A stretch of DNA of 64,000 bases from an uncultured Gammaproteobacteria bacterium. Its GTDB lineage: Bacteria > Patescibacteriota > Patescibacteriia > Magasanikbacterales > UBA922. Numbering within the stretch: the stretch's first letter is position 1; each line of letters opens with the position of its first letter. The DNA lies in contig CAYGHM010000002.1 in NCBI GenBank assembly GCA_964349825.1, positions 620-64,619 on the forward strand. Direction: 5' to 3'. The position numbers and the translations under genes are program-made. Shown in pieces: positions 7,424 through 64,000 of this stretch. The notes below the pieces were generated by a model. It was given only the letters and a program-made list of their open reading frames with translations, searched no databases and was not told the origin of the DNA.

Positions 7424-7502
7424 ATCTAACTCATTTACAATGACAGCTAGTGATTATTAGTTAACAACGGTTAGTTAGCAATCATTAAATGTCCATTAAT
7501 TG

Positions 7503-7594: not shown

Positions 7595-7688
7595 AAGATC
7601 AATATTCAATTTTCAATTTCTAATTTTTAATTGCATTCCACTTAGCACATAAATGGAAATTGAGAATTGAAAATTGGAAATTTCTAAT

Positions 7689-23361: not shown

Positions 23362-24786
23362 TTATAGAATAGTAACACATCCATTATTCGCATCGACTTC
23401 AACATACATACCGCTCTCCAATAATTTTGTTGCCACTTTGGTGCCGATCACACATGGCTTTTTCATCTCTCTCGCAATAATTGCTGCATGGCAAGTAATA
23501 CCACCTTCATCAGTGACAAACCCAGCAGCACGTTCCATGGCAGGCACCATATCGGGTGTCGTCATAGCAGCAACAATAATATCGCCAGCTTCAACCAACA
23601 AAAGATCTTTTTTATGTTTAATTTTTTTCACCTTTCCTCTCACGAGACCACGATACGCGACAGCCCCCTTAATTTCCTCTATTTCTTCTGCTTTATGGAG
23701 ATATGTTTCACGCCAAATTACTTCATCCTCTTTTCTGTCTGAGAATTGTACATTCCCCGGTTCAAGAGCGAGTAACGCAAACCAGTCATCACGACGAGAT
23801 TTTACATCTAAACCAATTGTTTTCCACTGAGCAAGTTCATCCGCACGCAAGGCAGAAATTTCCTCAAGTGTCACCCCCATTCGTTTTGCAATTTCTTCCA
23901 AAAGAGGTACGATCCGAGCATACGCGCATGCGAGATAATCGGTACGGCATGTACGAAAATAAACTATCTCTTTGGCAATCGTTACCACATGTCGAATGTC
24001 ATCATCAGCATGCAATGTGTTGAGCAACTCTTTCGACCGCTGTAAATGTATATTTACGTCCTCCTTCATTTCATGAAGTACTTTTTCGCAATCATTTTCC
24101 AATACCTGATTTAATCGCACGCGAACATCAGAAACATCCCACGCTGTACCACTTCCACCACGAATATTTGTCCACCCAAATTCCTGAGCATGGTCTTGTA
24201 AAAGCTGATCTAACTTATCAGATGGATTTTCCAACTCGCCTCGCTGAATCTGAGCGCCAATCTCAAGTAATGCATATTTTTCAACCGTCTGCACATTTAC
24301 CTTTTCAGGAAAACTAATAATTGCCAATTCCTCCTCAAGATCAGCTCTGTTTTTCAAAAAATCACGCAAACGATCTTCTATCGGAAATTGCAGGCCGTAT
24401 CCTGGCAATGTAACCGCAAACGTCTGAAACATTGTGAGAAAATTATCCCACATAGCCATGAGTTCACTGTCTTTTTTCGAAGTAAAATCATTTTTTTCTA
24501 TCTCTTTCGCATACGCAACCATCTTTTCACCATAGGTATATATTGTATCAAATACACCAGCAAGAAATCCCCGCTCCTCGGTTTCTTTTTTGAGTAATTT
24601 TTCAATAAGCTCAAAACTTTCCGGTCCGTACCACCATTCACCATTAAAATATCCGCAAGTAATATACGTATTATCAAGATGATACAGTGTCTTATAATGT
24701 TCAGGCGTTGAAAGTCCCCGAACATAAATGTCCGCAATCAAAACAGTGTATGGACGAGTAACAATAAGATTTAATTTGTTGTGCAT
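23362..24786 (-). CDS. PEP-utilising-enzyme swivel-domain protein, paralog 4 (unique N-terminal domain + C-terminal phosphohistidine domain)
   Basis: The C-terminus GDIIVAAMTTPDMVPAMERAAGFVTDEGGITCHAAIIAREMKKPCVIGT is the PEP-utilisers mobile domain with its catalytic His. Confidence 0.75.
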   Translation of the reverse strand: MHNKLNLIVTRPYTVLIADIYVRGLSTPEHYKTLYHLDNTYITCGYFNGEWWYGPESFELIEKLLKKETEERGFLAGVFDTIYTYGEKMVAYAKEIEKNDFTSKKDSELMAMWDNFLTMFQTFAVTLPGYGLQFPIEDRLRDFLKNRADLEEELAIISFPEKVNVQTVEKYALLEIGAQIQRGELENPSDKLDQLLQDHAQEFGWTNIRGGSGTAWDVSDVRVRLNQVLENDCEKVLHEMKEDVNIHLQRSKELLNTLHADDDIRHVVTIAKEIVYFRTCRTDYLACAYARIVPLLEEIAKRMGVTLEEISALRADELAQWKTIGLDVKSRRDDWFALLALEPGNVQFSDRKEDEVIWRETYLHKAEEIEEIKGAVAYRGLVRGKVKKIKHKKDLLLVEAGDIIVAAMTTPDMVPAMERAAGFVTDEGGITCHAAIIAREMKKPCVIGTKVATKLLESGMYVEVDANNGCVTIL

Positions 24787-24788
24787 AA

Positions 24789-26117
24789 TTAATTTTTAGT
24801 AAGAATGGTAATTTTTCCTATATGCGCATCTACCTCGACCAGGTCTCCGTCCTTCAAAACTTTTGTTCCAATCTTTGTCCCAATGATACACGGCTTATTC
24901 ATCTCTCGAGCGACAATTGCTGCATGCGATGTAATACCACCAATATCAGTGACAAATGCCGCAGCGCGACGCATACCCGTCAAAAAATCAGGTGTTGACA
25001 TGGCAGCGACGAGAATATCACCTTGTTCAATCTTCGCGCATTCTTTTGCATGAAGCACTACTTTTACTTTTCCAACTACTTTCCCCGGCTGCGCGCACAT
25101 CCCGGTGATTTCTGTTGGCCGCTCTTCTGTGCTCTTCACTTGTTCCTCTTTTCCTTCAAATAATTCAACAGCGCTATCAGTAATTTCCAAAATAAAATTA
25201 TTGCGTGTATCAAATTTCGGCTTGATGTACATGCGGCCGTGCAATACATTTTTTACCTCCTCAATGCGCATGTGTAATAATTCATCATACTGCACAATAT
25301 CGGCAAAACATATCATGACCATTTCTCGAAATAAATATGTGCCATAACAATTGGCTTCCCATTTTTCCGTACGCAATCGAAGAAGTTGCTCAGCATACCG
25401 GACAAATGGTGAATCAACTGCTTCCATTTCTTTTTGTTCTTCGGGTGCATGATGAAGACTATCACGAAGCATCACATACGCTTCAATAACGGTCCATGGA
25501 TGGCCTTTAAAATATTTCATCCCGAGGTATCCATATTTTTTACAAAACGTTTGCAGATCTTCTGTAAGAGAACTCGATAATTCATGTAATTCTTTTCCTT
25601 CCGTATCAAGCAATTCATCACGATATCTGTTTGCCAACTCCGTCAACAGCACTGATGCGCGTGTCGTATCTGTCACAGCAGAACGCATCGCATGCGGTGG
25701 AATACCTTGTCTCGTCAATTCAGCGCTCAACCCGGACTCCAAAACAAATCGCGCAATAGATCCGGTAGCTCGCATTGCTTCATCGAAATATTCATCAATA
25801 AGTTCGGGATGCTGACGCGCAGTATGGAGTTCTGTTTCAAATCTTTTTAAAAATGTTTTGAAGCGATCAAAAATAGTTTCAATCTCATGAATAAGATTAG
25901 TATATTGTTCATCCGTAAGAAGTTTCGTTCCCATTTCCGTATACTGCGCCAATGACCAATTGATATCCCCATTAATATGATTGTACTGAATATACGGATA
26001 CTGAAATGAAAAACCTAATTTCGTAAAATCGGTATATGTATAAATACCACTCAATACCAAATCCTGGGTCAATAAATCAGACCGATGGTTGACAATAATT
26101 TCCCAATCTCTTTGCAT
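24789..26117 (-). CDS. PEP-utilising-enzyme swivel-domain protein, paralog 3
   Basis: C-terminal GDILVAAMSTPDFLTGMRRAAAFVTDIGGITSHAAIVAREMNKPCIIGT; the N-terminal ~330 aa are unrelated in sequence to the other paralogs. Confidence 0.75.
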   Translation of the reverse strand: MQRDWEIIVNHRSDLLTQDLVLSGIYTYTDFTKLGFSFQYPYIQYNHINGDINWSLAQYTEMGTKLLTDEQYTNLIHEIETIFDRFKTFLKRFETELHTARQHPELIDEYFDEAMRATGSIARFVLESGLSAELTRQGIPPHAMRSAVTDTTRASVLLTELANRYRDELLDTEGKELHELSSSLTEDLQTFCKKYGYLGMKYFKGHPWTVIEAYVMLRDSLHHAPEEQKEMEAVDSPFVRYAEQLLRLRTEKWEANCYGTYLFREMVMICFADIVQYDELLHMRIEEVKNVLHGRMYIKPKFDTRNNFILEITDSAVELFEGKEEQVKSTEERPTEITGMCAQPGKVVGKVKVVLHAKECAKIEQGDILVAAMSTPDFLTGMRRAAAFVTDIGGITSHAAIVAREMNKPCIIGTKIGTKVLKDGDLVEVDAHIGKITILTKN

Positions 26118-26121
26118 ATAT

Positions 26122-27540
26122 CTACGCTTTAGTCAGCACTTTAATAGTCCCTTTACTCGCATCGACTTCTACTATATCCCCATCTTTCAATATAGTCGTC
26201 GCCACTTTGGTGCCTACAATACAAGGCACACCAAGCTCGCGAGAAACAATCGCCGCATGAGAAGTAAGTCCGCCAGTATCCGTGACAACGGCGCTTGCCT
26301 TTTTCATGATAAAAACATATTCAGGTGTTGTCATGGAAGTAACCAATACATCTCCATCATCAAACCCTACCACATTATGCGGATCAAGCACAATTTTTAC
26401 TTTCCCTGTCACCAGACCCTTTCCTTTACAGGCAATAATACCACTAAAATTTTCAGTACTAGCGTCTACTTGCACATCCACATAAAGTTTCCAGCCGTCG
26501 AGTGTTTCTGATGAGCCCAAAAACTGAACGGTGTTTTCACTTCCGTACACACCAAAAGCTTTCTTTCTCTCATTCGGATCAACAGCGACCGTACGACCAT
26601 TTAGTAGTTCAATAATTTCTGCCCCGGAACAATTCAATAACGTGTTCACATCGAACTGTGGCAAACGCTGTGCTGCCTCAACAAGCAAAATATGCTTATA
26701 ATGCAAATAAATCCAGATATCTTTTTTTCGTGTATCCTGCCATACGATTGCGTCGGTAATCGCTTCTGCAATTGCCATAACTGAATCAGGCAATTTATAT
26801 TCTTCCTGTGTTTCAATTTTTTGCTGACGCACGAGAGCCAATCTTTCCTCTACCTCTTTTCGTATATCCAGAGAAAGTGTTTTTTTTCTTTCTGCAAAAA
26901 ATTCTACTGGCAATACTTCTACATTGGCATAACTATTTCGCAACCAAAAATATTTTTGTTGATGTACAGCAATATCATCCGTCTCGACCAAATCGATTTC
27001 TTCTTCCTGATAAAATGATTTTCCTTCAGGGGCAGTCAATATTTCCATGACATGCATCATCTGTTCTTCTGGAACAAACGGAACAAGCGAACGACGCAAT
27101 ACATCACTTGATCCATAGTTTGATAATTCTGGCAGAATGGCATATACCCAAAATGTCTTCAATAATTTTCCAAAACGTAATAACACATCTTGAAAGGCTT
27201 CGAATGATAAAAGGGACAAGTCAGTAGCGCCAATCTCTTGATTAAGCATGGTAAAATCATGATGTGCCACCATCCACTGTGCGCGAACAGACTCTCGTTT
27301 CTCACGTGGAAGCATCATTTCCAGAAACAGTTTTTCTCCATTTCGCTGCAATGCATCAGCTTCATGCATCCACACCATTCGATTCTCTTTAAATAAAGCT
27401 AAAAAATCTGGCCATCCATATCCAGGAAATTCCTCTGGATAGTCAATAAAAAAAACATCAAAACAATCTGCATAATAAATGTAGAATGGCGTAGGCCCCC
27501 ATTTGAAAATTTCTTTATGTGGATCAAGGTATTGTTTCAT
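26122..27540 (-). CDS. PEP-utilising-enzyme swivel-domain protein, paralog 2
   Basis: C-terminal GDVLVTSMTTPEYVFIMKKASAVVTDTGGLTSHAAIVSRELGVPCIVGT. Confidence 0.75.
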   Translation of the reverse strand: MKQYLDPHKEIFKWGPTPFYIYYADCFDVFFIDYPEEFPGYGWPDFLALFKENRMVWMHEADALQRNGEKLFLEMMLPREKRESVRAQWMVAHHDFTMLNQEIGATDLSLLSFEAFQDVLLRFGKLLKTFWVYAILPELSNYGSSDVLRRSLVPFVPEEQMMHVMEILTAPEGKSFYQEEEIDLVETDDIAVHQQKYFWLRNSYANVEVLPVEFFAERKKTLSLDIRKEVEERLALVRQQKIETQEEYKLPDSVMAIAEAITDAIVWQDTRKKDIWIYLHYKHILLVEAAQRLPQFDVNTLLNCSGAEIIELLNGRTVAVDPNERKKAFGVYGSENTVQFLGSSETLDGWKLYVDVQVDASTENFSGIIACKGKGLVTGKVKIVLDPHNVVGFDDGDVLVTSMTTPEYVFIMKKASAVVTDTGGLTSHAAIVSRELGVPCIVGTKVATTILKDGDIVEVDASKGTIKVLTKA

Positions 27541-27543
27541 AAA

Positions 27544-28548
27544 CTAAGTTATTTTTCTAATAATTCCTCTGTTCGCATCAACCTCAATAATATCTCCATC
27601 TTTCAACAATTGCGTTGCAATCTTCGTTCCAATAACGCAAGGAATCTTCATCTCTCTAGAAACGATAGCGGCGTGACAGAGTAATCCACCCTCATCAGTA
27701 ACAAAGGCTCCGGCCAATTTCATTGCTGGTAAAAAATCCGGAGTTGTCATTGGCGAAACCAAAATATCACCCTGAAGTACTTTTGATAAATCTTCCTTGG
27801 TATACACAATTTTTACCTTTCCTATTACAGTGCCTTTATACCCTATCTGTCCGCTAATTTCTTTTGCATCAACAACGTCATCAGATGTCAATTCAAAGGC
27901 TTTTTCTGTTGCAAGTTTTTCTATACTGAGAGGATAAATATTTGCAGCACAATCCTCCACAAATAGATTGCTTACATCTGAAATTCTAGAAAATTCTATA
28001 TATTCTATTAATTGTTTTACCTGTATAACTTTTACCTGTTCTAAGGGTAACCCGCTTGATACAAGAGATCTTCTTATAAAATCATCAGCGAGGCTCCAAA
28101 GATCATCTCCTTCTCTCTGTTCTTTACTCCAGCTACGTATATCATCCGGCCATTCTTCTGTCATTGAAGAAATAAACATGACGTGATTTGAAAAACGAAG
28201 GTCGTTAAATAGTCGACACATTTCCAAAACGTCTTTTGGATATACATCTTTTTTTTCTGAAAGTTTTCTTATGCTTTCGGCGATTCGTGTATAATCTTTT
28301 TTTGTTTGTTCAAATAATACACTATCAGTAAGTAGGCTATCTTTTATCTTATTATTCCAGTAATCAAACGATTCCTTGTTTAACCAAAATTCAACAACTC
28401 CATTTTTTACATACTTCAGGACCGGACTACTCAACACCGGATCAAAAGAATCAACCAAGGCTTCTGGAAAATGATAAAAACCAGAAGATGCTAGTAAAAA
28501 TGTAATATCTCTGGAATATGTTTTTTCAAAAACAATTTTTTTATTCAC
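27544..28548 (-). CDS. PEP-utilising-enzyme swivel-domain protein, paralog 1 (shortest, 334 aa)
   Basis: C-terminal GDILVSPMTTPDFLPAMKLAGAFVTDEGGLLCHAAIVSREMKIPCVIGT. Confidence 0.75.
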   Translation of the reverse strand: MNKKIVFEKTYSRDITFLLASSGFYHFPEALVDSFDPVLSSPVLKYVKNGVVEFWLNKESFDYWNNKIKDSLLTDSVLFEQTKKDYTRIAESIRKLSEKKDVYPKDVLEMCRLFNDLRFSNHVMFISSMTEEWPDDIRSWSKEQREGDDLWSLADDFIRRSLVSSGLPLEQVKVIQVKQLIEYIEFSRISDVSNLFVEDCAANIYPLSIEKLATEKAFELTSDDVVDAKEISGQIGYKGTVIGKVKIVYTKEDLSKVLQGDILVSPMTTPDFLPAMKLAGAFVTDEGGLLCHAAIVSREMKIPCVIGTKIATQLLKDGDIIEVDANRGIIRKIT

Positions 28549-34031: not shown

Positions 34032-34556
34032 TTAGGCTGGTTTCTGATCTTTGATCGCATTCAAGACGTTTGCAAGTCCACGGAGGTTACCAGCAAGCAC
34101 ATTCACGAAGCCGGATACCGGCGCGTTCAATGTACCAACCAATTGACCAAGGAGCTGCTGTTTGCTTGGAAGTGCAGAAAGTTGTGACACTTTAACACCA
34201 TCAATAAACTGTCCTTCAAGAATACCACCAAAAACCTTCACGACATCATGACTTTTCGCGAATTTCGCGACGATCTGTGCTGGCGCTACTTCATCTTTCA
34301 TTCCAAGAAATACTGCGACACCACCTTCAAATTCTTTGGTATCAATATCGTATCCAGCATTCTGGAGTGCGATTTTTACCAAGGTTTTCTTGCTGGCAGC
34401 GTAGTATACGTCTTGATCTTTACAGATGCCTCGGAGCTCGTCAATATCTTCCATCTTCAATCCTTGAAAATTCGCAAATACTGCGGATTTTGCAGATTGG
34501 AGATTCTGGGAGATAATGTCTACCGCTTCCTGTTTTTGTTGTCGGGTCTTTGCCAT
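34032..34556 (-). CDS. rplJ: 50S ribosomal protein L10
   Basis: [33 protein letters not shown]; adjacent to and upstream of rplL. Confidence 0.9.
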
Positions 34557-34729
34557 ATTGTAACCCAAAAAAATAAAAAATCTCTGGCACTACCAAAGAC
34601 TAAGTACAATCGACCTAAGAGAAAAATCTCTTAATTTTGCACCTCGGTAGCACTTATCCCCGAAGGGTGGCTACTGTCTTCAGTAATGAGTTGTGAAGAC
34701 ATAATACTATATATGCTGGCCGCTGTCAA
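34557..34729 (-). promoter_or_regulatory. rplJ promoter (TTGACA-N17-TATTAT at 34701-34729, minus strand) plus structured L10-leader-like 5-prime UTR
   Basis: Minus strand: cTTGACAgcggccagcatatatagTATTATg followed by a GC-rich stem region, GAAGACAGTAGCCACCCTTCGGGGATAAGTGCTACCGAGGTGC. Confidence 0.5.
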
Positions 34730-54371: not shown

Positions 54372-56930
54372 ATGGAACCGAAACAAATCCTAGAAAACTT
54401 CTCAACCCACTTAAAAAATGTGATTGCTCGCGCAATTTCTCTCGCCGCGCAATTTAAGCATGAAAAAGTACTTCCGGCGCACCTCCTTCTTGCCATAACA
54501 GAAGAAACAGGGTGCGTAGGAGCTGAGCTCCTCAAAAAGAATAACTTTACCAATAAATCAATTGTATCATATTTAGCTACTCTCAAAACAATTGATTTGG
54601 AAATAAGTTCTGAACAAGGAAAATCAGCTATCGCAACCTTGCCAGAATTACATGAACATGCAAAACAAGTGTTGGAAAAAGCCATGCTTATTGCCTATGA
54701 GTATGCGCACAACCATGTAGGAACAGAGCATCTTTTGCACGGAATTATCACAACAGAAAGTCCAGATTTGTATGACATTTTTATTGCAAGTAAAATAAAA
54801 ACAAAAGAAATTGAAGAACAGCTCCAAACTATTTTTCAAAGTACTAGTAAATTCCCTGATATAGAAGAAATTTCTGAGGTAATGAATCATCTTGATGATA
54901 TGGGAGAAGATATGGAAGACGGACATGAGATGCCGGGACCGCATCCACGACATCCGCCTGAAAAAACAAAAATGAGAAAACCGGGCCCAAGTGCGCTCGA
55001 CATGTTTGCAACCCGACTTACTGACGAAAAAATTCAGGAAACCATCGACCCTGTTATTGGTCGGGAAAAAGAAATCGAACGCGTCATCCACGTATTATCT
55101 CGTCGCAATAAAAATAATCCGATTCTTATTGGTGAGCCGGGTGTTGGAAAAACAGCGATTGTTGAAGGGCTGGCAAAACGGATTACTGCCGGTACTGTTC
55201 CGGCAGTACTCAAAAATAAGCATATTTTTTCTCTCGACATGACCCTGCTTATCTCCGGGACAATTTACCGAGGGGAATTTGAAGCACGCATCAAACAACT
55301 GATCGATGAAGTATCTGCCCATCCTGACTACATTCTTTTTATTGATGAAATACATAATATTATCGGCGCAGGATCAAACCAAGGTACTATGGATGCAGCC
55401 AATATTTTAAAGCCAGCACTTGCTCGTGGTAAATTACGCTGTATCGGCGCAACTACATTTGATGAATACAAAAAATATATTACCAATGACCCGGCGCTTG
55501 AACGACGATTCCAGTCTATCCGCGTGGATGAACCAAGCAAAGGTGATGCTACCAATATTCTTCGCGGGATTAAAAAATACTACGATGCATTTCACCATAC
55601 CGATATTACCGACGATGCAATTCAAGCATCGGTAGAATTAAGCGCGCGCTATATCCATGATAATTTCTTACCCGACAAAGCGATAGATCTTATTGATGAA
55701 GCGGCTGCAGCAGTCCGAACAAAACAAAAAATAACACCACAAGAAGAACAACTCTTTTCATTACAACAACGTGTGAATGATTTATTAAAACAAAAAGAAG
55801 TTGCGATTGATGAAGAAAAATTGGAACAAGCAATTAAACTCAAAGAACAATTAAAAAAGATAGAAAAAGAATTGGCAACAATTCAAAAAAAGGCCAAAAA
55901 ACCAACCAAAAAACGAGCGCTTGTCGGTCGTGATGATATTATTCGTGTTCTTAGTACACGTCTTAATATTTCTCCAGAAATACTCGCGCAAAAAGAATGG
56001 GATCGACTGAGAACGCTTGATACTCGCTTAAAAAAGCATATTATTGGACAGGATTCTGCACTCACTACTATCTCGACCGCATTAAAACGTTCTCATTTGG
56101 GAACAAATCCAAATAGCCGCCGGCCGATTGCTTCTTTTCTCTTTGCTGGCCCAAGCGGCGTAGGAAAGACAGCATTAGCCAAAGCGCTCGCAGAGGAACT
56201 CTACCAAGATCCAAAAGCCTTAATTCGTCTCGACATGAGTGAATTTTCCGAAGGCCATGGTATTTCAAAACTACTCGGCTCCCCTGCTGGATATGTGGGA
56301 TACAAAGACCGCAATCGTTTTGTTGATGAATTAAAACAACGCCCCTATTCAGTTGTTCTTCTCGACGAAATTGATAAAGCACATCCGGATGTGCTCAAAC
56401 TCTTATTACAAATTCTTGACGAAGGGACATTGACTGATAGCGGCGGAAAACACTTATCGTTCCAACATACTGTCATTATCTTGACCACCAATATAGGTGC
56501 TGAATTATATAAAAGTGCAGGTATTGGATTTGGGAGTGTTGGGAGCGATGGAAATGCGCAAGTAGAGCGACGGACGTCAGCCATTGAAGCGCGGTTACAA
56601 GACGCTTTCGGTACCGCCATACTCGGACGCCTTGATGCCCTCTGTGTCTTTAATCCGCTCACACACGATACGGTCACGGCTATCGCCAAAAAACATCTTG
56701 AGGCACTCTCAGCAGCGATGAAAGAAAAAAATAATATTGCCATTCATATTACGGAACCAGCAATTGAACAACTCATCAAAGACGCAAAATACGCGGATAT
56801 GGGGGCTCGCCAGATTGAACGCGTTGCAGACCGAGTAGTACAAGATCTTCTTGTCGACATACTTATGAAAACAAAACATAAAAAACAATATAAGCTTGTT
56901 CATACTGATAATACCTATAAATTGGTATAA
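54372..56930 (+). CDS. clpC: Clp ATPase chaperone (ClpC/ClpB family): two AAA+ modules and Clp_N repeats
   Basis: [15 protein letters not shown] and [15 protein letters not shown] Walker A motifs, with sensor and arginine-finger regions; 852 aa. Confidence 0.85.
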
Positions 56931-56938: not shown

Positions 56939-57289
56939 ATGCCAACAGCCGACCAGGAGCGTTTGTGGGCGCATCAATTGCAAAAGAATAAAAACCAAGA
57001 GCATCAAACAAATGCGACCGATTGGGGCCTAAAAGCAGCCTCAATTGTTCAAGATATGACACAAACAAAAAAATATCTAAAACAAGCACTAGAAGAAAAA
57101 AATACAAAAAAAATTCAGGAATACGCAAATACGCTTATTAATCTTCGTGCAGAACAATTTACTTGCGCACTACATCAATACAGAAGAGATGTACAAAAAA
57201 CTGATCCTGATTTTATATCCCGAATGGTTGCTCAGTATAAAAAAGATTGCTCCAATCTTCTTGCAGCAATTACCACATTGCACACATAA
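56939..57289 (+). CDS. hypothetical protein
   Basis: ORF directly after clpC; no motifs. Confidence 0.3.
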   Translation: MPTADQERLWAHQLQKNKNQEHQTNATDWGLKAASIVQDMTQTKKYLKQALEEKNTKKIQEYANTLINLRAEQFTCALHQYRRDVQKTDPDFISRMVAQYKKDCSNLLAAITTLHT

Positions 57290-57298
57290 TCAGCTCCC

Positions 57299-58435
57299 AT
57301 GTCTGAAGAACCACTCGATCTCAATTCACTAAAAACGGGAATGGATAGCGCGCTCCGGAAAGCACTTCCTGATTTTTTGTCTTCCGATGAAAATGCCGAT
57401 ATTATTTCGAGACAAATTGAAGAGATATTGAAAAATAGTCTACCAAACATGGTCGCGGAATCCGCGCAATCTGGCATGGCGCCGCAACAAGCAGAAGACA
57501 TGCTCAACCAATTTGGTGCAAGCCCTCAAGAATCATCACAACCACAAGAAGACGATGCCCAAAGTGGGGCATACGAGGCAGCAGAACCAGATGAGTACGG
57601 CAAAGAAAAAAATGACGAAGAAAATGCGGAAGACAAAGACTCCACTGGTGAAGAACAAGGTAATGAAAAAGACGAAGCGGGAGAACCAGGACAAGAAGAA
57701 GCTGCCGCTGAACCAGAAAATAATCCACAAGAACAAGAACCCCAAACAGAAGCTCCGGCAGCACCAGATAAAAACCCCCAAGAAAATCCCTCTTCTCCAG
57801 AAGGTGAAACAGAAGAACAACCACAAACAAAAGAGGGAGATTCGCTTGGATTTGATAAGCCCACGACAGAACACCCCATGTACGACGAGGCAAATGCAGC
57901 GACCAATCCTGAAGAAAAAAAAGATACAAAGCCAGATGAACAAGAACGTGAAAAAAAACAAGCCGAAGCGCTCCAGCAGGAAAGAAATCAAGCACGTGCA
58001 CAACAAACACAAAATGCCCAACAAGGGCAACAGGCAGCCAATATTTCTTCCCAAAAAAAACAACTTCTTACGAATGCTTCCCGTCTTACGATCAAAGGGT
58101 TGTTTGCATTAAAGGCGGGATATATCGTGACCGACTCTATTGATGTTCTTGAATCTATAGACGGAGCCACAGTTTCTGCCCTCTTCAATATCTTTACTGT
58201 TGCAACTACTGCCAGCATATTTATGGCACAAAATGGAGAAACAAAAAAATTTATTCTCAAAAAATATGCACTTAAAGCATGTGGAGCAGCAATTGCAGAA
58301 TCCATTCCTATTGTGAATATCGTTCCATGGGATACAATAAACGGTTTTATGCTCGCACGTGCTGTCAAAAAGCAAAAAAAAGAGTATACTGAAGAAGCAA
58401 AACGCCTTGAATCAGGAAATCAAACGTCATCATAA
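57299..58435 (+). CDS. acidic low-complexity (E/Q/P-rich) protein with hydrophobic C-terminal region
   Basis: Long EEQPQ/EKDE low-complexity stretch, then LFALKAGYIVTDSIDVLE...ASIFMAQ. Overlapping ORFs in other frames are low-complexity artefacts. Confidence 0.4.
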   Translation: MSEEPLDLNSLKTGMDSALRKALPDFLSSDENADIISRQIEEILKNSLPNMVAESAQSGMAPQQAEDMLNQFGASPQESSQPQEDDAQSGAYEAAEPDEYGKEKNDEENAEDKDSTGEEQGNEKDEAGEPGQEEAAAEPENNPQEQEPQTEAPAAPDKNPQENPSSPEGETEEQPQTKEGDSLGFDKPTTEHPMYDEANAATNPEEKKDTKPDEQEREKKQAEALQQERNQARAQQTQNAQQGQQAANISSQKKQLLTNASRLTIKGLFALKAGYIVTDSIDVLESIDGATVSALFNIFTVATTASIFMAQNGETKKFILKKYALKACGAAIAESIPIVNIVPWDTINGFMLARAVKKQKKEYTEEAKRLESGNQTSS

Positions 58436-58473
58436 AAATAAAAAATTAACTTCCTTAAACCGCAATTACCCAT

Positions 58474-59718
58474 TTGTCATTTCTCCCTATGGACAAAAGA
58501 CGTATCATTATTATCACTATCTTCACGCTCGTGTGTATCGGCATTGGCTATCTTCTTTATCGTGTATTCTTCTATACGGCACCCAAACCACTTATAACAA
58601 CAACAGAAGAATCAACAGAAGGATCTCAATTTCCTCAAGCGAATCAAGGTGGCCCTAAACCAGGAGAAATTACCGAAACAGGAGCACTCCCAGCAAGTGA
58701 AACGCAGCAATCTGGCTCAGAAGAAGGCGGACCTGGAACAGATTTCACCCCAGGACAAGTAGACCAAGTAGTAAGCAATGCCATCACTGGTGTATCCAAA
58801 GATTCCACCTCTGGCAATCCACGTTTTTATAATAGCCAAGATGGAAAATTCTATCGGATCGGCGCAAATGGACAACCTGAAGCATTAAGTGACCAAGTAT
58901 TCTATAACGTTGACGATGTTACCTGGTCTCCAATATCCGATGAGTCAATTATTGAATATCCAGATGGGGCAAATATTTATTATAATTTTGATACAAAAAA
59001 ACAGGCAACGCTTCCAAAACATTGGGAATCATTTTCTTTTGCTCCGAGTGGAGATAAAATTGCCGCAAAAAGTCTTGCCTTCTCACCTGAAAATCGCTGG
59101 CTCGTTGCATCTGATCCAGACGGCAACAATATTGAACTTGTTGAACCGTTAGGAAATAATGCAGACAAAGTTATTGTGGATTGGTCACCAAATAAACAAA
59201 TAGTTGCCTTGTCTACTACAGGAGAAGATTTGGGAAGCGATCGTCAAGAAGTACTTTTTATTGGAAAAAATGGAGAAAATTTTAAATCAACCGTAGTCGA
59301 AGGACGTGGTCTGATAACAAACTGGTCTCAAACAGGAGAAAAATTACTATATAGCGTACATAGCGCGCGAAACGAATTCAAACCTGAGTTATGGATTGTC
59401 CACTCTGCAGGTGATGCAATTGGTGAAAATCGCAAACCTATCCAGCTCAATACATGGGCAGACAAATGTACATTTACTGATGATCGTTTTGCGTATTGTG
59501 GTGTGCCAAGAGAATTACCAAAAGGCGCAGGCTTTGCCCCATCACTTGCAGACAATATTCCTGACGATCTCTACAAAATTGATGTTGAAACTGGTATAAA
59601 AATAAAATTGCCAATAGCAACTGACCACGTCATTGAATCCATGTTTGTCGGCAAAGATGGAAAAACGATTTATTTTACGGATAAAAACCAACCAGGTTTA
59701 TTTACCGTATCCCCATAA
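58474..59718 (+). CDS. membrane-anchored PD40/TolB-like beta-propeller repeat protein
   Basis: N-terminal TM; repeated WSP-type segments (VDWSPNKQIVAL, FAPSGDKIAAKS, TNWSQTGEKLLY). Confidence 0.45.
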   Translation: MSFLPMDKRRIIIITIFTLVCIGIGYLLYRVFFYTAPKPLITTTEESTEGSQFPQANQGGPKPGEITETGALPASETQQSGSEEGGPGTDFTPGQVDQVVSNAITGVSKDSTSGNPRFYNSQDGKFYRIGANGQPEALSDQVFYNVDDVTWSPISDESIIEYPDGANIYYNFDTKKQATLPKHWESFSFAPSGDKIAAKSLAFSPENRWLVASDPDGNNIELVEPLGNNADKVIVDWSPNKQIVALSTTGEDLGSDRQEVLFIGKNGENFKSTVVEGRGLITNWSQTGEKLLYSVHSARNEFKPELWIVHSAGDAIGENRKPIQLNTWADKCTFTDDRFAYCGVPRELPKGAGFAPSLADNIPDDLYKIDVETGIKIKLPIATDHVIESMFVGKDGKTIYFTDKNQPGLFTVSP

Positions 59719-59723: not shown

Positions 59724-60365
59724 ATGGATACCAAAAAATTACTCCTCATTTTTATTCCTGCCCTTCTCTTTGTATTACTCGGGTTTGCTTTTCGTGTGTA
59801 CCAATACGAACCACTGATCCCAAACAAAAAAAATACGCAGGAAGAAAAAAAACTTGATCTTGTTCCCCTTCTCGCTGAAGATCCTATAATCGGAGAAAAA
59901 AAAGCTCCTATTACCATAGTAGCTTTTGAAGATCTCGCTTGTGGCGGCTGTCGCGCACAATCAGAAATATTCGACGCGCTCATTGCACAATACCCAGGAA
60001 AAATAAAAATTATTTGGAAATTATTAAACGTCACCACATTTCCTCACAATACTGAGTTGGCACATGATTATGCCTTTTGCGCTCACGAACAAGGAAAATT
60101 TGTTGAGTTTAAAAAAGCTGCATTTGCCAATAGTACAAATTTATCTGAAAACATACTCAAAACCATTGTTTCATCTAGTGGTTTAAACGAGAAAAAATTC
60201 CTTGCGTGTCTTGCAACTGATCGACCAAAACAATACCGAGAAAAAAACCACGCTATTGCCTCCTTACTTCATATTCAGGCAGTACCGGCATTGTTCATGG
60301 ACAATAAACAAATCCAAACACCAGCTACTATAGAACATTGGAAGACACTTCTTAATCTTGAATAA
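59724..60365 (+). CDS. DsbA-family thiol:disulfide oxidoreductase (membrane-anchored)
   Basis: N-terminal TM; thioredoxin CxxC motif in EDLACGGCRAQSEIF. Confidence 0.65.
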   Translation: MDTKKLLLIFIPALLFVLLGFAFRVYQYEPLIPNKKNTQEEKKLDLVPLLAEDPIIGEKKAPITIVAFEDLACGGCRAQSEIFDALIAQYPGKIKIIWKLLNVTTFPHNTELAHDYAFCAHEQGKFVEFKKAAFANSTNLSENILKTIVSSSGLNEKKFLACLATDRPKQYREKNHAIASLLHIQAVPALFMDNKQIQTPATIEHWKTLLNLE

Positions 60366-60379: not shown

Positions 60380-62173
60380 ATGCGGATTGGCAATACATCT
60401 CTCTCCACTTTGAGCGCAAGAGTAATCGCGGTTTTTTCTGTCCTCATTTTTTTCTGTTTACCAGTATCAGCATTCGCAAAAAATAAAGTCGCAGTTATCG
60501 GCTCATCGAGCTATGCAGGAGGCTGTAGTTATTCGTACGGTTTTGTTAATAAATTAAAAAAAGCCTATCCAGACACTGAATTTGTCTGTTTTACGAAGAG
60601 TGGTTCATCGGCAAATTTTTTCCTAGAACAATACAATGCCAATGTGAAAGGAAAAGGCTATAACGATATTATTGTATTTGGCGGATTAAATGGACTTGGT
60701 AATGCAAGTGGATTAAAGAGCACTCAACAGCATTTAAAAAGTATTTTTATTGCAGCCGAAGCAGAAAAAACTCGTGTGATCGTGACAGGCAGCCAACCCT
60801 TTAAAGGATACAGCTCTTGGACCCAAGAATGGTCTGATAATTTGAAAAAAAATAATGCGTGGCTTGCGACAAAACCAAACGGACTTGATATTTACATAGA
60901 AATATATCCACTCGTTGATAAAAACAATGATGATGCGCTCGACAGTGAATTTGATTCTGGGGACCATTTGCACATGGGTTCAAAAGGACACGCCCTTCTA
61001 TTTGGACTCATTGCCAATAGCGCATATGGTGCCAGTGTCCCTGCGCCAGCAGCAGGAGCAGCAACAGCAGCAGAAGCAGACACGCCTCCTTCTGGACCAC
61101 CCCCTGTTGCATTAGAAGAAATCAAAAAAATTATTGAGGTACCACAAATAAAAATAAAAATCCCAGGTGTTAATTTTACACCCGTCGATGACATACCCAA
61201 TCTGGTTAAAAAAGAAGCGGGACTTAATGGAAAAGAAGGTGTCTATATTACCCTTCCTTTTATTGGAGAATACCTTGCAAGCATCTACCGTTTTGCTGTC
61301 GTTGCAGCATCTATTCTCGCTGTCATTTTTATTATCATTGGTGGATTTATTTGGACCACATCTGCTGGAAGCGCTGACAAAATCACCTCTGCCAAAACCA
61401 TGATCCAGCGTGCCCTTACTGGCCTTGTCCTTGCTACAGGTTCCTATGTTCTTCTCTTTACTATCAATCCAGAACTCGTACAATTCAAAAGTCTTAAAAT
61501 TTTATATATTCCTACGTCTGATATAGACGGATTAGTTTTTGATGGAAATGATGATAATACACCTGAAGATAATTCAGGAAAACCGTATGGTTCAACAGCT
61601 TATGATGAAACATTTAAAAAATTTGCAACCTGCTCGGGTATGAATTGGGAATTATATAAAGCAGTAGCACATCATGAATCTGGTCTCAATCCATCCATCG
61701 TTAACCCAAGAGGGACAGCAACTGGCCTGTTCCAGTGCATAGATGGTAATGCGCATAGAACATGTCGTCGTGTATTAAAAGGTATCGGATGGGATGACAA
61801 ATGCGATAATCCAGGCCTCAAAGATCCTGAAGTTAATACTGCATATGCGACACTCCTCTTCAGATCTAATGCCAAAACAATTAATGGCAGATGCAGCAGC
61901 GCTTCATTTGATGATAAAGTATTTATGTTATATTTTGGACATAGCAGCGGTCCTGGTGCCCTCACGGCAGCAGTGCGTTTGTGGGGATGTGATATTGATG
62001 ATTGGGCAAAGGAAGGAGAGTGGCCAAAAGAAGCTTTATACGGTCTAGGAGGAAAGAAAATTTACAATGGCGCCTCTCGTACCTATATCGAAAAAATCGT
62101 AAAAAAAATTAATAAATTTGATATTAAAAATTTCGAAGGACCAAAAGATAGTTCCTGCCCTATTGGAAAGTAA
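60380..62173 (+). CDS. secreted multi-domain cell-wall enzyme: SGNH/GDSL esterase domain, Ala/Pro linker, two-helix membrane hairpin module, SLT lytic transglycosylase domain
   Basis: Signal peptide; SGNH blocks (VIGSSS, FGGLNG, DSGDHLH); linker PAPAAGAATAAEADTPPSGPPP; hairpin FAVVAASILAVIFIIIGGFIWTTSAGSADK...ALTGLVLATGSYVLLFTINPELV; SLT motifs VAHHESGLNP and ATGLFQ; Cys-rich. Confidence 0.55.
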   Translation: MRIGNTSLSTLSARVIAVFSVLIFFCLPVSAFAKNKVAVIGSSSYAGGCSYSYGFVNKLKKAYPDTEFVCFTKSGSSANFFLEQYNANVKGKGYNDIIVFGGLNGLGNASGLKSTQQHLKSIFIAAEAEKTRVIVTGSQPFKGYSSWTQEWSDNLKKNNAWLATKPNGLDIYIEIYPLVDKNNDDALDSEFDSGDHLHMGSKGHALLFGLIANSAYGASVPAPAAGAATAAEADTPPSGPPPVALEEIKKIIEVPQIKIKIPGVNFTPVDDIPNLVKKEAGLNGKEGVYITLPFIGEYLASIYRFAVVAASILAVIFIIIGGFIWTTSAGSADKITSAKTMIQRALTGLVLATGSYVLLFTINPELVQFKSLKILYIPTSDIDGLVFDGNDDNTPEDNSGKPYGSTAYDETFKKFATCSGMNWELYKAVAHHESGLNPSIVNPRGTATGLFQCIDGNAHRTCRRVLKGIGWDDKCDNPGLKDPEVNTAYATLLFRSNAKTINGRCSSASFDDKVFMLYFGHSSGPGALTAAVRLWGCDIDDWAKEGEWPKEALYGLGGKKIYNGASRTYIEKIVKKINKFDIKNFEGPKDSSCPIGK

Positions 62174-62243
62174 TACTATTACACAAGCAATTAATTGTCA
62201 CCGGTAATCGATACACATAGATACATCACCATTACCGCTTTAA

Positions 62244-63536
62244 TTGCTTTTTTCATCTATGAAAACAAAACATACTCTCCTTAAAAAAATACTCTTCCTT
62301 GGTGGAATTATTCTTTGTACGACACTTCTCTTTTCTACGTTACCCGCACAAGCAGAAACAAATTTGCAAGATATTATTTCTGCGCCACAACCTCGTATTA
62401 AAATTCCTGGACTTAATTTTAGTAGTAATGAAACCGTAATTAACAGTCTCAAAGAAGAGGATGGTCCAGCAGGTAACGGACAATATATTAGCATCCCCTA
62501 TATCGGAGAATATCTTGGTACAATCTATCGATTTGCAGTTGTTTCAACATCTATCATTGCTGTTATCATCATCATTATTCAAGGTTTTGTTATTACTACG
62601 TCTGCTGGAAATTCGTCTCGTATGTCTCATGCCAAAGAGCGAATTGGACAGGCACTTACCGGTCTTATTATTGCTGCAGCATCGTATATAATTTTATTTA
62701 CCATTAATCCGGAATTGGTGAAATTTAAAAATCTCAAAGTATTATATATAAAAAGACAGGATATCCAATTATCCCAATTTGATTCTTCTGATACATTCGA
62801 TGGAACTCCCATCTCTGTTCCGGATGCAAAAAGCAAGTTCAATTATACTATTACTCAATACAAACAATTTGATGGACGGTGGGCAGAAAAACCAATGGAA
62901 TGTAAACCTCCTTTTGCTGGAAACTTAGATATAAAAAGTAATGGGTGTGGATTGGTCTCCAGCCTTATTATTCTTAATGCATTATACCCAGATAAAAAGA
63001 TGGACCCGATCCAATTTATGGATTTTTATCATTCGCATAGTGCCGGCGCTGGCGGAAGCTGCAATTCTAGTGATTATATAAGTCCTTCCTACTACAAAAC
63101 AGAGTGGATGCAAGAACGGTATCCCGGATTAAACGTTCGTCTCAGTCGTACCCAAGGAAATGCCACTGCAATGACAGAAGAATTAAATAAAGGTAATCTG
63201 ATTATTGTGCTTGTGGGTGCCAGCGCCCTTACGAAGGGTGGACATTACATTGTCGTATATGACGTAAGTGAAAAGGACGGACGCTATTGGGCACATGTAT
63301 CTGATGCTGGTGCTGGCCAACCAAAATGTGTCGTCGATTTAGATGGAAAAAATTTAGAAAAAGATCACGAGATAAAGTTAAAAATAAAATCAAATCAATG
63401 TGGAAGCGGCAGCCAATTAGAGCGATGTAAGACTTGTGGTGGTACCACGCTTATGGGACCAGATGTCTATCCACTTTCTTATGTATTACAAGCAGAAAAA
63501 GGATCGCGCATTGTATTCGAACCGCCAAAAAAATAA
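62244..63536 (+). CDS. secreted protein: same two-helix membrane hairpin module fused to papain-like (C39/NlpC-P60-like) cysteine peptidase domain
   Basis: Signal peptide. The module IKIPGLNF...YIGEYLGTIYRFAVVSTSIIAVIIIIIQGFVITTSAGNSS...ALTGLIIAAASYIILFTINPELV is paralogous to the one in the previous gene. Putative catalytic Cys in SNGCGLVSSLIILNA; His in GGHYIVVYDV; Asp in HVSDAG. Confidence 0.5.
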   Translation: MLFSSMKTKHTLLKKILFLGGIILCTTLLFSTLPAQAETNLQDIISAPQPRIKIPGLNFSSNETVINSLKEEDGPAGNGQYISIPYIGEYLGTIYRFAVVSTSIIAVIIIIIQGFVITTSAGNSSRMSHAKERIGQALTGLIIAAASYIILFTINPELVKFKNLKVLYIKRQDIQLSQFDSSDTFDGTPISVPDAKSKFNYTITQYKQFDGRWAEKPMECKPPFAGNLDIKSNGCGLVSSLIILNALYPDKKMDPIQFMDFYHSHSAGAGGSCNSSDYISPSYYKTEWMQERYPGLNVRLSRTQGNATAMTEELNKGNLIIVLVGASALTKGGHYIVVYDVSEKDGRYWAHVSDAGAGQPKCVVDLDGKNLEKDHEIKLKIKSNQCGSGSQLERCKTCGGTTLMGPDVYPLSYVLQAEKGSRIVFEPPKK

Positions 63537-63542: not shown

Positions 63543-64000
63543 ATGTCAAAAGAAACTATTTTATTTGCCTGTAACGGCTGTGACGCTCAATACCAGAAAT
63601 GGATTGGGCGTTGTTTAGAATGTGGAAAGTGGGGCACAATTACAGAAATAGAAAACGCAAAGTCAAATAAGCAAATAAGCAAAAATAAAACGCCAGGAAC
63701 AAAAACACAGACATTACAAGACATTTCTGGAAAAGATATTGCGAGAAAAATGACCCACATGCCAGAATTTGACCGAGTACTTGGCGGTGGTATTGTACCA
63801 GGAAGTTTGATACTCCTTGGTGGTGAGCCAGGTATTGGAAAATCAACGTTAACGATCCAGCTTGCATCCGCCCTAGCAAATACCTTGTATATTTCTGGAG
63901 AAGAATCAGTGGAACAGGTAAAATTGCGCGCTGACCGGCTAGGTATTACATCCACGACATTGAAACTCGCGAATGAAACTAATGCTGAAATCATTTGTGC
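63543..64000 (+). CDS. radA: DNA repair protein RadA/Sms (N-terminal part; continues beyond the window)
   Basis: C4 zinc finger CNGCDAQYQKWIGRCLECGKWG; Walker A GGEPGIGKST; no stop before the window end. Confidence 0.85.
   Translation, partial: MSKETILFACNGCDAQYQKWIGRCLECGKWGTITEIENAKSNKQISKNKTPGTKTQTLQDISGKDIARKMTHMPEFDRVLGGGIVPGSLILLGGEPGIGKSTLTIQLASALANTLYISGEESVEQVKLRADRLGITSTTLKLANETNAEIIC

Follow-up and report, generated by a model that had tools for sequence, protein, structure and literature searches.

Predicted cell-wall enzymes on a pilin-like membrane hairpin in a conserved clpB-to-radA gene block of Patescibacteria

Gene organization of the locus

Here we report that two adjacent genes, A and B, in the window (the whole 64-kb stretch of DNA that was analysed) encode putative exported enzymes sharing a pilin-like hairpin module, and that they lie within a conserved block of closely spaced genes, 5-70 nt apart in the window, opened by clpB and closed by radA (Table 1). 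The order clpB, 116-aa protein, 378-aa protein, beta-propeller protein, dsbA, one or two pilin-enzyme genes and radA is carried by 11 related loci from Magasanik-, Uhr- and Paceibacteria, complete from clpB to radA in 8 of them, and clpB occupies the same position in those related loci whose fetched flank extends there.

Table 1. Features of the clpB-to-radA block and domains of the two pilin-enzyme genes
Feature	Position	Strand	Description and basis
clpB, opens the block	54372..56930	+	Pfam AAA_2, Clp_N, ClpB_D2-small; 8 nt to next gene
116-aa protein	56939..57289	+	Kept in block
378-aa protein	57299..58435	+	ORF translation; long acidic low-complexity region, hydrophobic C-terminal part; position conserved
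414-aa protein	58474..59718	+	N-terminal membrane helix, predicted beta-propeller
DsbA-like thiol-disulfide oxidoreductase	59724..60365	+	N-terminal membrane anchor; Thioredoxin_4 E=4.2e-22, DSBA E=9.7e-10
Gene A	60380..62173	+	597 aa, 10 Cys; signal peptide, SGNH hydrolase, Ala/Pro linker, pilin-like module, SLT lytic transglycosylase
A, signal peptide	60380..60475	+	aa 1-32 (...VSAFA/KNK, slash at cleavage site); hydrophobic segment 6-35, AxA motif
A, SGNH/GDSL hydrolase domain	60476..61033	+	aa 33-218; PF13472, Foldseek, residue conservation
A, extended pilin-like module	61100..61564	+	aa 241-395; identity to B module, PF18895 sub-threshold, family-level homology
A, helical hairpin proper	61259..61465	+	Helices aa 294-326 and 332-362; loop TTSAGSADKITSAK
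A, SLT lytic transglycosylase head	61592..62173	+	aa ~405-597; 7 Cys; PF01464
Gene B	62244..63536	+	430 aa from TTG; signal peptide, pilin-like module, C39-like cysteine peptidase, Cys-rich C-terminal extension
B, extended pilin-like module	62343..62813	+	aa 34-190; AlphaFold, PF18895, NCBIfam Mbov_0395
B, Peptidase_C39_2-like papain-fold domain	62841..63323	+	aa ~200-360; Cys235 (NGCG), His334 (GGHY), Asp354
B, C-terminal extension	63324..63536	+	~70 aa; four Cys (362, 386, 395, 398); alignment with P0017
radA (sms), 5' part, cut by window end	63543..64000	+	tblastn with L001 RadA: 75% identity, 151 aa, E=1.5e-71

Among the proteins encoded alongside the pilin-enzyme genes, the 414-aa one is conserved best, and its orthologues stand directly upstream of dsbA at 45-75% identity in nine loci and at 32% in L011; its own family matches are limited to a weak one to WD40, and the L005 orthologue has faint PD40/Tricorn matches. 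The gene for dsbA, correctly placed immediately upstream of A by an earlier sequence-only reading of this DNA, directly precedes the pilin-enzyme gene or genes in every related locus having the block, and radA comes next after them in the window and nine related loci. The two proteins encoded downstream of clpB have no family match (none that is significant for the 116-aa protein), and both recur at their positions: tblastn finds the 116-aa orthologue in L001, L002, L005 and L006, with gene calls of similar size in L003 and L015, and the 378-aa orthologue in L001, L002 and L007, with unannotated genes of 366-525 aa at that place in the other loci.

No virB4 or other type IV secretion system (T4SS) gene was found in the 64-kb window or, for the related loci, over the ~8-10 kb that follow the block, and a search near the block for virB4, prgI/virB3 and trsD was negative in all 11 related loci. 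The sequence-only reading did not describe the conserved block, nor the head exchange and the family members inside T4SS loci that are set out below.

Catalytic domains of A and B

The N-terminal domain of A falls just under the Pfam cut-off for PF13472 (E=5e-7, 30.8 bits against 32.9 bits), a precomputed match to this family is present on the orthologues P0001, P0002 and P0004, and SGNH blocks I, II, III and V are kept as GSSS (Ser43), SG (Gly75), GLNG (Asn104) and DHLH (Asp195, His198). These five residues, invariant or near-invariant among 7 homologues, are the likely catalytic ones. The domain is modelled by AlphaFold at a pLDDT of ~90, its best Foldseek matches are SGNH esterases (E=1.6e-6, TM 0.7), and its profile reaches 4iyj in the PDB at 5e-5.

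Both carbohydrate O-acetyl esterases and the peptidoglycan O-acetyltransferase PatB occur among the structural neighbours of this domain, PatB of N. gonorrhoeae being among the top matches (E=5.4e-6), and SGNH transferases and esterases have one common catalytic triad. The domain could accordingly be a transferase of the PatB/OatA-C type that modifies the wall instead of making it ready for the lytic transglycosylase. We consider this unlikely: in sequence and in structure the domain is matched better by carbohydrate O-acetyl esterases and by acylhydrolases (4iyj, 7tog), the block holds no visible PatA/OatA-type membrane acyl-donor partner, and a fused acetyltransferase would be expected to block its partner lytic transglycosylase. 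An esterase joined to a lytic transglycosylase would make mechanistic sense, because lytic transglycosylases require a free C6-OH on MurNAc. We infer esterase chemistry for this domain, and its labelling as an O-acetyl-peptidoglycan esterase is plausible; it has no sequence match to Ape1, and the solved structures closest to it are those of generic carbohydrate acetyl-esterases and of PatB.

The C-terminal head of A matches the SLT family PF01464 at E=4.7e-10 (39.5 bits, cut-off 21.3). Its predicted catalytic pair is Glu433-Ser434 (HHESGLN), both residues being invariant in 7 homologues, and the GLFQ motif is also present. A family profile matches EmtA (5.9e-7), phiKZ gp144 (6.5e-7) and Slt70 (1.4e-4); AlphaFold models the head poorly (pLDDT 40-70).

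Translation of B probably starts at the ATG at 62259. In a Pfam search at E<=1 the protein matched no peptidase family, hence had no direct match to Peptidase_C39_2 (PF13529, clan CA); at the profile level its head belongs with that family by homology, papain-like fold and Cys/His/Asp triad. The C-terminal extension is not part of ordinary C39_2 domains. Pfam, profile and fold evidence thus bear out the SGNH, SLT, papain-like C39-type peptidase and DsbA calls of the sequence-only reading, which had labelled the head of B C39/NlpC-P60-like. The C39 part of that label stands on the C39_2 profile and fold. NlpC/P60 (PF00877) found no support, with no Pfam match and with C39 and papain types as the best structural matches.

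The hairpin module is a relative of T4SS pilins

The modules of A and B, already noticed to be alike, are 54% identical (E=1e-42). In A, the module runs from a PQxKIKIPGxNF motif through a beta-hairpin, a first membrane helix (TM1), a basic loop and a second helix (TM2) to an INPELVxFKxLKILYI strand; in B, the helices span aa 86-119 and 124-154 (62499-62705) and the cap is a small three-stranded sheet (aa 70-84, 164-168). Direct matches to the pilin family PF18895 lie below its Pfam gathering cut-off of 26.6 bits, for A (aa 298-352) at E=0.0098 and 16.4 bits and for B at E=0.019 and 15.5 bits. Because these scores fall under the cut-off, membership of PF18895 follows from transitive, profile-level homology: 74 of the 94 nearest module relatives match PF18895 at E<=1e-3 (best 1.8e-25), some also match TrbC (PF04956), and the NCBIfam family Mbov_0395, a pilin-like conjugal transfer protein of a mycoplasma ICE, is matched by 12 of 28 family modules (best 3.7e-8) and by the B module itself at E=0.0032. 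A family HMM of the module further matches a 174-aa PF18895 pilin encoded in a virB4 locus (E=8e-12).

The shared segment might instead be a novel membrane module of non-pilin origin, its weak Pfam matches being hydrophobic-helix noise. Such a view can point to the sub-threshold scores of A and B themselves, to conserved flanks (PQPRIKIPGLNF, IPxLGEY, INPELVxFKxLK) that fall outside the 71-position PF18895 model, and to a profile search of solved structures with the module, in which no pilin was matched. Fold searches do not discriminate so simple a shape as a two-helix hairpin. Against the matches among the nearest relatives, the mycoplasma family and the pilin of the T4SS locus, this view is already disfavoured and we give it hardly any credence. 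By profile homology, the module is a divergent, extended form of PF18895, the VirB2-like T4SS pilin of Patescibacteria. A search with its profile returned 20,378 representative protein clusters at E<=1e-3, the best 150 matches being nearly all multidomain proteins of 300-900 aa. The novelty first claimed for the module must therefore be given up, and the comparison with VirB2/TrbC pilins, offered then as conjecture, has gained substance.

Several predicted features are consistent with an out-in-out topology: AxA signal peptides, hydropathy (2.87 for TM1 of A), the charge of the loop (+3/-1 in A) and AlphaFold hairpins with pLDDT 80-92 (80-88 for the helices of A, 85-92 for the module of B). 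The charge bias computed across 160 family modules was counted toward the same prediction. With the short basic loop in the cytoplasm, both ends of the hairpin would lie outside the cell, and every catalytic head would therefore face the cell-wall space. The sequence-only reading had proposed such an arrangement, which the predictions support.

Wall enzymes as exchangeable heads

The domains fused to the 94 nearest modules are almost all cell-wall enzymes: SLT (14), Amidase_2 (11), VanY (11), C39_2 (10), GDSL_2 (8), M15_4 (5), NlpC/P60 (4), M23 (4), CHAP (2) and GH18 (1), and one more family member carries YkuD (L,D-transpeptidase). That the C39-like head of B processes exported peptides, as the double-glycine leader peptidases of bacteriocin transporters do, and does not cut peptidoglycan, seems to us very unlikely.

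Close relatives carry different heads. P0002 and P0004 are 97.5% identical over 362 aa and 33.5% identical thereafter; P0010, with a C39 head, and P0011, with an uncharacterised one, share 74% identity across the module and 19% beyond it, and the head of P0011 aligns with nothing in that of P0010. In L001, a fossil of a displaced C39 head, its last ~48 codons, lies in front of radA and preserves a copy of the Cys-rich C-terminal segment seen in B. Heads have been swapped exactly at the C-terminal end of the module, as these alignments place it, apparently by recombination.

Possible functions and the link to T4SS

On these observations, we think it likely that A and B are membrane-tethered wall-cutting enzymes built on a pilin scaffold, with heads that are exchanged and a settled place between clpB and radA. 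Both proteins would be exported by Sec and stay in the cytoplasmic membrane through the two-helix pilin-like hairpin, A bearing an SGNH esterase-type and an SLT lytic transglycosylase head and B a C39-like cysteine peptidase. A and B are rich in cysteines, which the DsbA encoded in the same transcript probably oxidises, and they would thus depend on it. Acting jointly on peptidoglycan, the presumed substrate, the heads could remove O-acyl groups from the glycan, cleave its strand and sever stem peptides or cross-links. The wall so cut may be the cell's own, for growth or for passage of a T4SS or pilus, or that of a host. The pilin module would serve as the conserved carrier, its heads being replaced by recombination at the C-terminal boundary, and in this lineage the genes have their place in the clpB-to-radA chromosomal block and not in the vicinity of virB4. 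In sum, what the sequence-only reading observed is confirmed, and its interpretation is partly supported.

Elsewhere the family does meet T4SS genes. Its distant members P0013 and P0022 are encoded with them: in L004, a module with an SLT-like head stands beside PrgI, TraC-like and VirB4 genes and a small pilin, and in L013 a module with YkuD lies two genes downstream of VirB4. Such loci lend themselves to a reading of A and B as true pilin subunits, whose hairpin a T4SS encoded elsewhere in the genome would extract and polymerise into a pilus or stalk. Because both termini of a VirB2-type pilin are on the pilus exterior, the heads would stand out from the fibre or its tip and break down the wall of the host or prey cell where contact is made. 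Homology of the hairpin to T4SS pilins agrees with this, as do the fusions inside virB4 loci of other Patescibacteria, and frequent head swaps are the pattern expected of parts facing another organism. Patescibacterial T4SS with VirB2-like pilins are documented (PMC12102498, PMC10633639), VirB4, TrsD and PrgI are found elsewhere in Magasanikbacteria genomes (PMC12102498 supplement), and a pilin array and T4SS are essential for the epibiotic growth of a Saccharibacterium (PMC10633639; PMC12857230). However, none of the 11 block loci has T4SS genes nearby, heads of ~200 aa at both termini would be expected to crowd a helical pilus lattice, and YkuD L,D-transpeptidase and VanY/M15 carboxypeptidase heads suit maintenance of the cell's own wall better, so that we hold polymerisation of A and B to be improbable. 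It is similarly doubtful that a T4SS fibre of these ultrasmall bacteria, with exchangeable esterase, lytic transglycosylase, peptidase and amidase heads on its subunits or tip, acts as an enzymatic drill through the host wall at the attachment site; if it did, head exchange at the module boundary would follow the wall chemistry of different hosts.

The same loci could also be taken to mean that A and B are assembly factors of the VirB1/PrgK type, the pilin-like anchor bringing them to a T4SS or type IV pilus of their own cell, where they would open a local hole in that cell's wall. SLT and cysteine peptidase are combined likewise in the Gram-positive T4SS hydrolases PrgK and TraG, classical VirB1 homologues with linkage to virB4 are few in Patescibacteria, where other glycosidases may substitute, and radA and recG are commonly within 20 genes of virB4 in class ABY1 (all PMC12102498). 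In the window, radA borders the block. Yet any virB4 would lie at least 8-10 kb away downstream and 60 kb upstream of the block, and an assembly factor should have one enzymatic specificity, while close relatives carry different heads at the same position; this role, too, has only a small chance of being the right one. Wall-cutting enzymes tethered to the membrane by a pilin scaffold remain our preferred explanation.

Significance

The Patescibacterial pilin domain is very widely used to carry peptidoglycan enzymes, of which almost all classes are represented. The genes lie either next to virB4 or in the conserved chromosomal block, together with those for DsbA and the beta-propeller protein. 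Bacteria of the candidate phyla radiation live attached to other cells, a way of life for which their T4SS and its VirB2-like pilins are essential, and these proteins are concrete candidates for the opening of walls, their own or those of a host. The fusions may also bear on the scarcity of classical VirB1 homologues linked to Patescibacterial T4SS. The literature that we found covers the pilins, and pilin-enzyme fusions are not described there.

Comparison with known systems

With the PF18895 or VirB2-like pilins (Quinonero-Coronel et al. 2025, PMC12102498; Wang et al. 2023, PMC10633639), A and B share a signal peptide, two hydrophobic helices, a short basic loop, profile-level homology, a distribution largely confined to the candidate phyla radiation and paralogues lying side by side. 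Pilins of the described kind are small and encoded in arrays next to virB4, whereas the module of A and B sits inside enzymes of 430-597 aa, has extra conserved flanks (the PQPRIKIPGLNF motif and the small beta-sheet cap), scores under the Pfam cut-off and is placed in a clpB-to-radA block without T4SS genes.

Among the enzymes, Ape1 of Neisseria is generally known as an SGNH-fold serine esterase functionally paired with a lytic transglycosylase, and O-acetylated MurNAc is closed to attack by lytic transglycosylases. Ape1 is soluble, periplasmic and a protein of its own, whereas A has both domains on one membrane-tethered chain, its esterase role being predicted from sequence. B differs from Peptidase_C39_2 proteins (PF13529; B. 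anthracis 3erv) and the pseudomurein endoisopeptidase PeiR in its loop insertions, its 70-aa Cys-rich C-terminal extension and its lack of a direct Pfam match.

PrgK (pCF10), TraG (pIP501), CwlT (ICEBs1) and VirB1 resemble the family as membrane-anchored extracytoplasmic enzymes combining a lytic transglycosylase or muramidase with a cysteine peptidase, and distant members of the module family likewise adjoin virB4. These T4SS enzymes have a plain N-terminal anchor, carry both heads on one chain and are encoded within the T4SS operon; in A and B the activities are divided between two proteins, each with a pilin-like hairpin; there is an SGNH domain besides, and virB4 is unlinked.

The pattern of exchange recalls polymorphic toxins and contact-dependent inhibition proteins (CdiA-CT, Rhs). 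There, too, the N-terminal carrier is conserved and recombination has a sharp boundary at a conserved motif; carriers that are nearly identical end in unrelated C-terminal heads, and displaced head fragments lie downstream. In contrast to those systems, the next gene is radA and not an immunity gene, in the window and nine related loci alike, the heads are ordinary wall enzymes in place of nucleases or pore formers, and the carrier is a membrane hairpin in place of a secreted filament.

Two exported enzymes on a pilin-homologous hairpin

Here we report that genes A and B each encode an exported multidomain protein with a hairpin homologous to pilins as its scaffold (Table). Both carry AxA signal peptides, and residues 241-395 of A align with residues 34-189 of B at 54% identity (BLASTP of A against B, E=1e-42), so the shared module proposed by the sequence-only reading, an extended segment with two transmembrane helices (TM1 and TM2) around a basic loop, is real. 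Beyond these two, no further copies were found in the window by tblastn and a six-frame HMM scan; weak tblastn matches at 13206-13463 and 34383-34478 were dismissed as noise. ATG 62259 is more likely the start of B than TTG 62244, because P0014, a relative with 98% identity, starts at the equivalent ATG (MKTKH...), 15 nt past the TTG; no obvious Shine-Dalgarno sequence precedes either candidate.

Features of the window, with positions and strands
Feature	Position	Strand	Remarks
Four-tRNA cluster	7340-7764	-	housekeeping feature
Four tandem paralogous genes (474, 442, 472, 334 aa)	23362-28548	-	PEP-utilizers mobile domain
ORF, 775 aa	30905-33232	+	without Pfam match at E<=1e-5
Ribosomal protein L10 leader	34565-34701	-	Rfam RF00557, 50.3 bits
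ORF, 272 aa	35496-36314	+	without Pfam match at E<=1e-5
ORF, 384 aa	36452-37606	+	without Pfam match at E<=1e-5
ORF, 216 aa	37655-38305	+	without Pfam match at E<=1e-5
Three genes (116 aa; 378 aa; 414 aa)	56939-59718	+	without family assignment
Gene A	60380-62173	+	ORF, 597 aa
Gene B	62244-63536	+	ORF, 430 aa counted from TTG; adjacent to A

The hairpin had also been described as novel, a claim that fails because sequence databases hold many proteins of this architecture, and as pilin-like, which the family now bears out. Direct Pfam matches of the two hairpins to PF18895 (T4SS_pilin, the VirB2-like pilin of Patescibacteria) are weak (E=0.0098 for A, 0.019 for B). A word-indexed search with the module alone gave zero matches, so an index-free profile search was needed; run with a two-module profile, it recovered 20,378 representative clusters at E<=1e-3, of which 5,262 pass E<=1e-10 and 135 pass E<=1e-30. 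Nearly all of the best 150 matches are proteins of 300-900 aa, and among them the match mostly covers almost the entire 158-position profile. PF18895 is matched by 74 of the 94 nearest relatives of the module at E<=1e-3 (best 1.8e-25) and TrbC/VirB2 (PF04956) by one; the NCBIfam model for the Mbov_0395 pilin-like conjugal transfer protein is matched by 12 of 28 diverse modules (best 3.7e-8), and an HMM built from 160 modules matches a genuine 174-aa PF18895 pilin within a virB4 locus at 8e-12. Conserved flanks (PQPRIKIPGLNF, IPxLGEY and INPELVxFKxLK) fall outside the 71-position Pfam model and define the module as an extended subtype of the pilin domain. Among solved structures, no pilin was found with the module profile. 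A likeness to MscL (E about 1, chance level; two modules weakly in NCBIfam, E about 1e-3) was set aside as coincidence; it spans positions 12-75 of the module alignment A7 (B residues ~45-110), with the PQPRIKIPGLNF motif and TM1 set against periplasmic loop and TM2.

AlphaFold models the hairpin as two long antiparallel helices (A 294-326 and 332-362, B 86-119 and 124-154; pLDDT 80-92), topped in B by a small sheet of strands before TM1 and after TM2. Over the 160 modules the net charge is +1.5 in the inter-helix loop and -2.3 in the flank before TM1. Because the loop is positive, the flank negative and AxA signal peptides are present, the hairpin fits an out-in-out topology predicted to place every head (the enzyme domain fused to the module) outside the cell, in agreement with the earlier placement of the flanking domains. 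VirB2-type propilins likewise have an out-in-out membrane topology.

Enzyme heads and a proposed mechanism

The three enzyme assignments made by eye, an SGNH hydrolase and SLT lytic transglycosylase in A and a papain-like peptidase in B, held up; every domain of A and B falls in a known family, and the catalytic motifs of all three enzymes are intact. Residues 40-206 of A match GDSL_2/SGNH in Pfam (PF13472; E=5e-7, 30.8 bits, under the cut-off of 32.9), and the SGNH blocks (GSSS with Ser43, Gly75, Asn104 and Asp195-x-x-His198) are kept in seven homologues. This domain is confidently modelled (AlphaFold, pLDDT about 90) and matches solved SGNH esterases (E=1.6e-6, TM about 0.7), and its structural matches include acetyl-esterases that act on carbohydrates as well as PatB, an O-acetyltransferase of peptidoglycan. 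Residues 412-526 match SLT over the cut-off (Pfam, E=4.7e-10), Glu433-Ser434 is kept in the same seven homologues, and the A-family profile matches the solved lytic transglycosylases EmtA (5.9e-7), phiKZ gp144 (6.5e-7) and Slt70 (1.4e-4). The peptidase head of B has no direct Pfam match; an HMM built on its four orthologues selects nine other proteins among the related proteins collected, all of which carry Peptidase_C39_2 (PF13529), and hhalign against eight of their C39_2 domains (probability 97.7%, E=1.3e-12) pairs NGCG (Cys235), GGHY (His334) and the Asp354 position of B with those domains.

Based on these observations, we consider it likely that A and B are membrane-tethered wall-cutting enzymes on a pilin-like hairpin carrier. 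The hairpin would remain in the membrane and present the heads to the wall. Lytic transglycosylases require a free MurNAc C6-OH, so the SGNH domain of A may act ahead of the fused transglycosylase, stripping O-acetyl groups and thereby enabling it, and B would cleave peptide stems or cross-links. DsbA, whose gene lies directly 5' of A, where the sequence-only reading had put it (Pfam Thioredoxin_4, E=4e-22), could oxidise the Cys-rich heads (A has 10 Cys, B has 8).

Exchange of heads on a common module

The domains fused to the module in its 94 nearest relatives are almost exclusively cell-wall enzymes: SLT (14 members), Amidase_2 and VanY (11 each), Peptidase_C39_2 (10), GDSL_2 (8), Peptidase_M15_4 (5), NlpC/P60, Peptidase_M15 and Peptidase_M23 (4 each), CHAP (2) and GH18 (1). 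Additional module-bearing proteins have a faint glucosaminidase-type match, an Exo_endo_phos domain (endonuclease/phosphatase fold) or an L,D-transpeptidase YkuD domain. More than 100 aa follow the module in 158 of 160 proteins, and in 82 of the 160 more than 100 aa also precede it.

Two homologues of gene A, P0002 and P0004, are 97.5% identical over their first 362 aa, comprising signal peptide, SGNH domain and module through KILYIPG, and 33.5% identical beyond, where both have SLT tails of different lineages; this is a sharp recombination breakpoint, located at the module end and equivalent to ~61480-61500 in the window. Similarly, the C39-headed P0010 and P0011 share 74% identity through the module and 19% beyond, and B and P0009 share 73% in the module and 18% beyond. 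The P0011 head has no family match; by eye it resembles a cysteine peptidase of the NlpC/P60 type. A distance tree of modules tracks head type only partly: SGNH+SLT genes of near relatives cluster, more distant SGNH+SLT proteins branch elsewhere, and C39-headed modules are intermixed with modules bearing the unrelated P0009/P0011 head. In the related locus L001, the second pilin-enzyme gene has a P0011-type head, and between it and radA (L001:13296-13454) lie the last ~48 codons and stop of a C39-type head (GSQLDRCKTCGGSALYGPNSYPLVYLLQAEKGARLIFEPPAKK*). This remnant is the fossil of a B-like head and direct evidence of replacement in place. Taken together, the module-identical, tail-divergent pairs, the tree and the fossil show that heads have been swapped in place by recombination at the C-terminal boundary of the module. 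No immunity-like gene follows the pilin-enzyme genes.

Genomic context and possible roles

The window is ordinary chromosome: it contains pheST, dnaE, tsaD, mreB, frr, rseP, htpX and tRNAs, and its tRNA cluster and L10 leader confirm the context. No T4SS genes were found in it, either by Pfam on 35 ORFs or by tblastn with VirB4, PrgI and TraC-like sequences from the related locus L004. Elsewhere in the window, the tandem paralogues at 23362-28548 have a single Pfam match, to the PEP-utilizers mobile domain at the C-terminus; their first 250-400 aa match no family.

The A and B enzymes may maintain the cell's own wall, a reading favoured by this chromosomal setting and by the YkuD and VanY heads in the family. 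Display of the heads on a polymerised pilus, attacking a host wall, would draw on pilin homology and head exchange; T4SS gene linkage is absent here, however, and we regard such display as unlikely.

From clpB through B the gaps between genes are 5-70 nt, and radA begins 7 nt past B. The order clpB, a gene of ~116 aa, one of ~380-525 aa, a ~410-aa beta-propeller membrane protein, dsbA, one or two pilin-enzyme genes and radA was found again in Magasanikbacteria, Uhrbacteria and one Paceibacteria MAG, 11 related loci in all, with module identity to the window down to about 35-45%; a locus search with the two-sequence module alignment gave 7 loci. The clpB-to-radA span is complete in 8 of the 11; the remaining three end at a contig edge, and one of these (L011) has another module gene, not clpB, upstream of the propeller. 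The block is deeply conserved, and it is probably an operon. The top promoter-like site lies upstream of clpB, and the scan gave no convincing intrinsic terminator between the genes; both signal types are near background in number (promoter-like 32 against 26.5 expected, terminator-like 16 against 9.1).

The pilin-enzyme genes keep a conserved partnership with DsbA and the beta-propeller protein. The 378-aa protein is acidic and of low complexity with a hydrophobic C-terminus, the 414-aa protein is a membrane-anchored beta-propeller, and PHROGs, NCBIfam and PDB searches gave no usable match for these two or the 116-aa protein. In Magasanik-, Uhr- and Paceibacteria alike, all three genes accompany dsbA and the pilin-enzyme genes, and the pilin module may have their products as partners.

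Two more distant family members, from two other Patescibacteria lineages, lie inside real T4SS loci. P0013, with an SLT-like head (L004:10001-12193), occurs with PrgI, a TraC-like protein, VirB4 and a small pilin; P0022, with YkuD (L013:3597-8893), lies two genes 3' of VirB4 and near yidC, rnpA and rpmH, and this locus is therefore near the replication origin. Such neighbours of virB4, and the analogy with VirB1/PrgK, speak for local opening of the cell's own wall for its own T4SS or pilus, which we nonetheless hold to be improbable for A and B.

Comparison with known systems

VirB2-like pilins of PF18895 occur widely among Patescibacteria and are frequently arrayed near virB4, classical VirB1 homologues are rarely linked to virB4 there, and the distance of radA and recG from virB4 is commonly <=20 genes in class ABY1 (PMC12102498). 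In Magasanikbacteria, VirB4, TrsD and PrgI are encoded elsewhere in the genome (supplement of PMC12102498), and in Southlakia epibionticum growth on the host requires the T4SS together with its pilin array (PMC10633639, PMC12857230). No description of pilin-enzyme (pilin-hydrolase) fusions was found in the literature searched. Three observations go beyond those papers: the pilin domain as a general carrier of exchangeable wall-enzyme heads, the conserved clpB-dsbA-radA block of pilin-enzyme genes, and the recombination scars within these genes.
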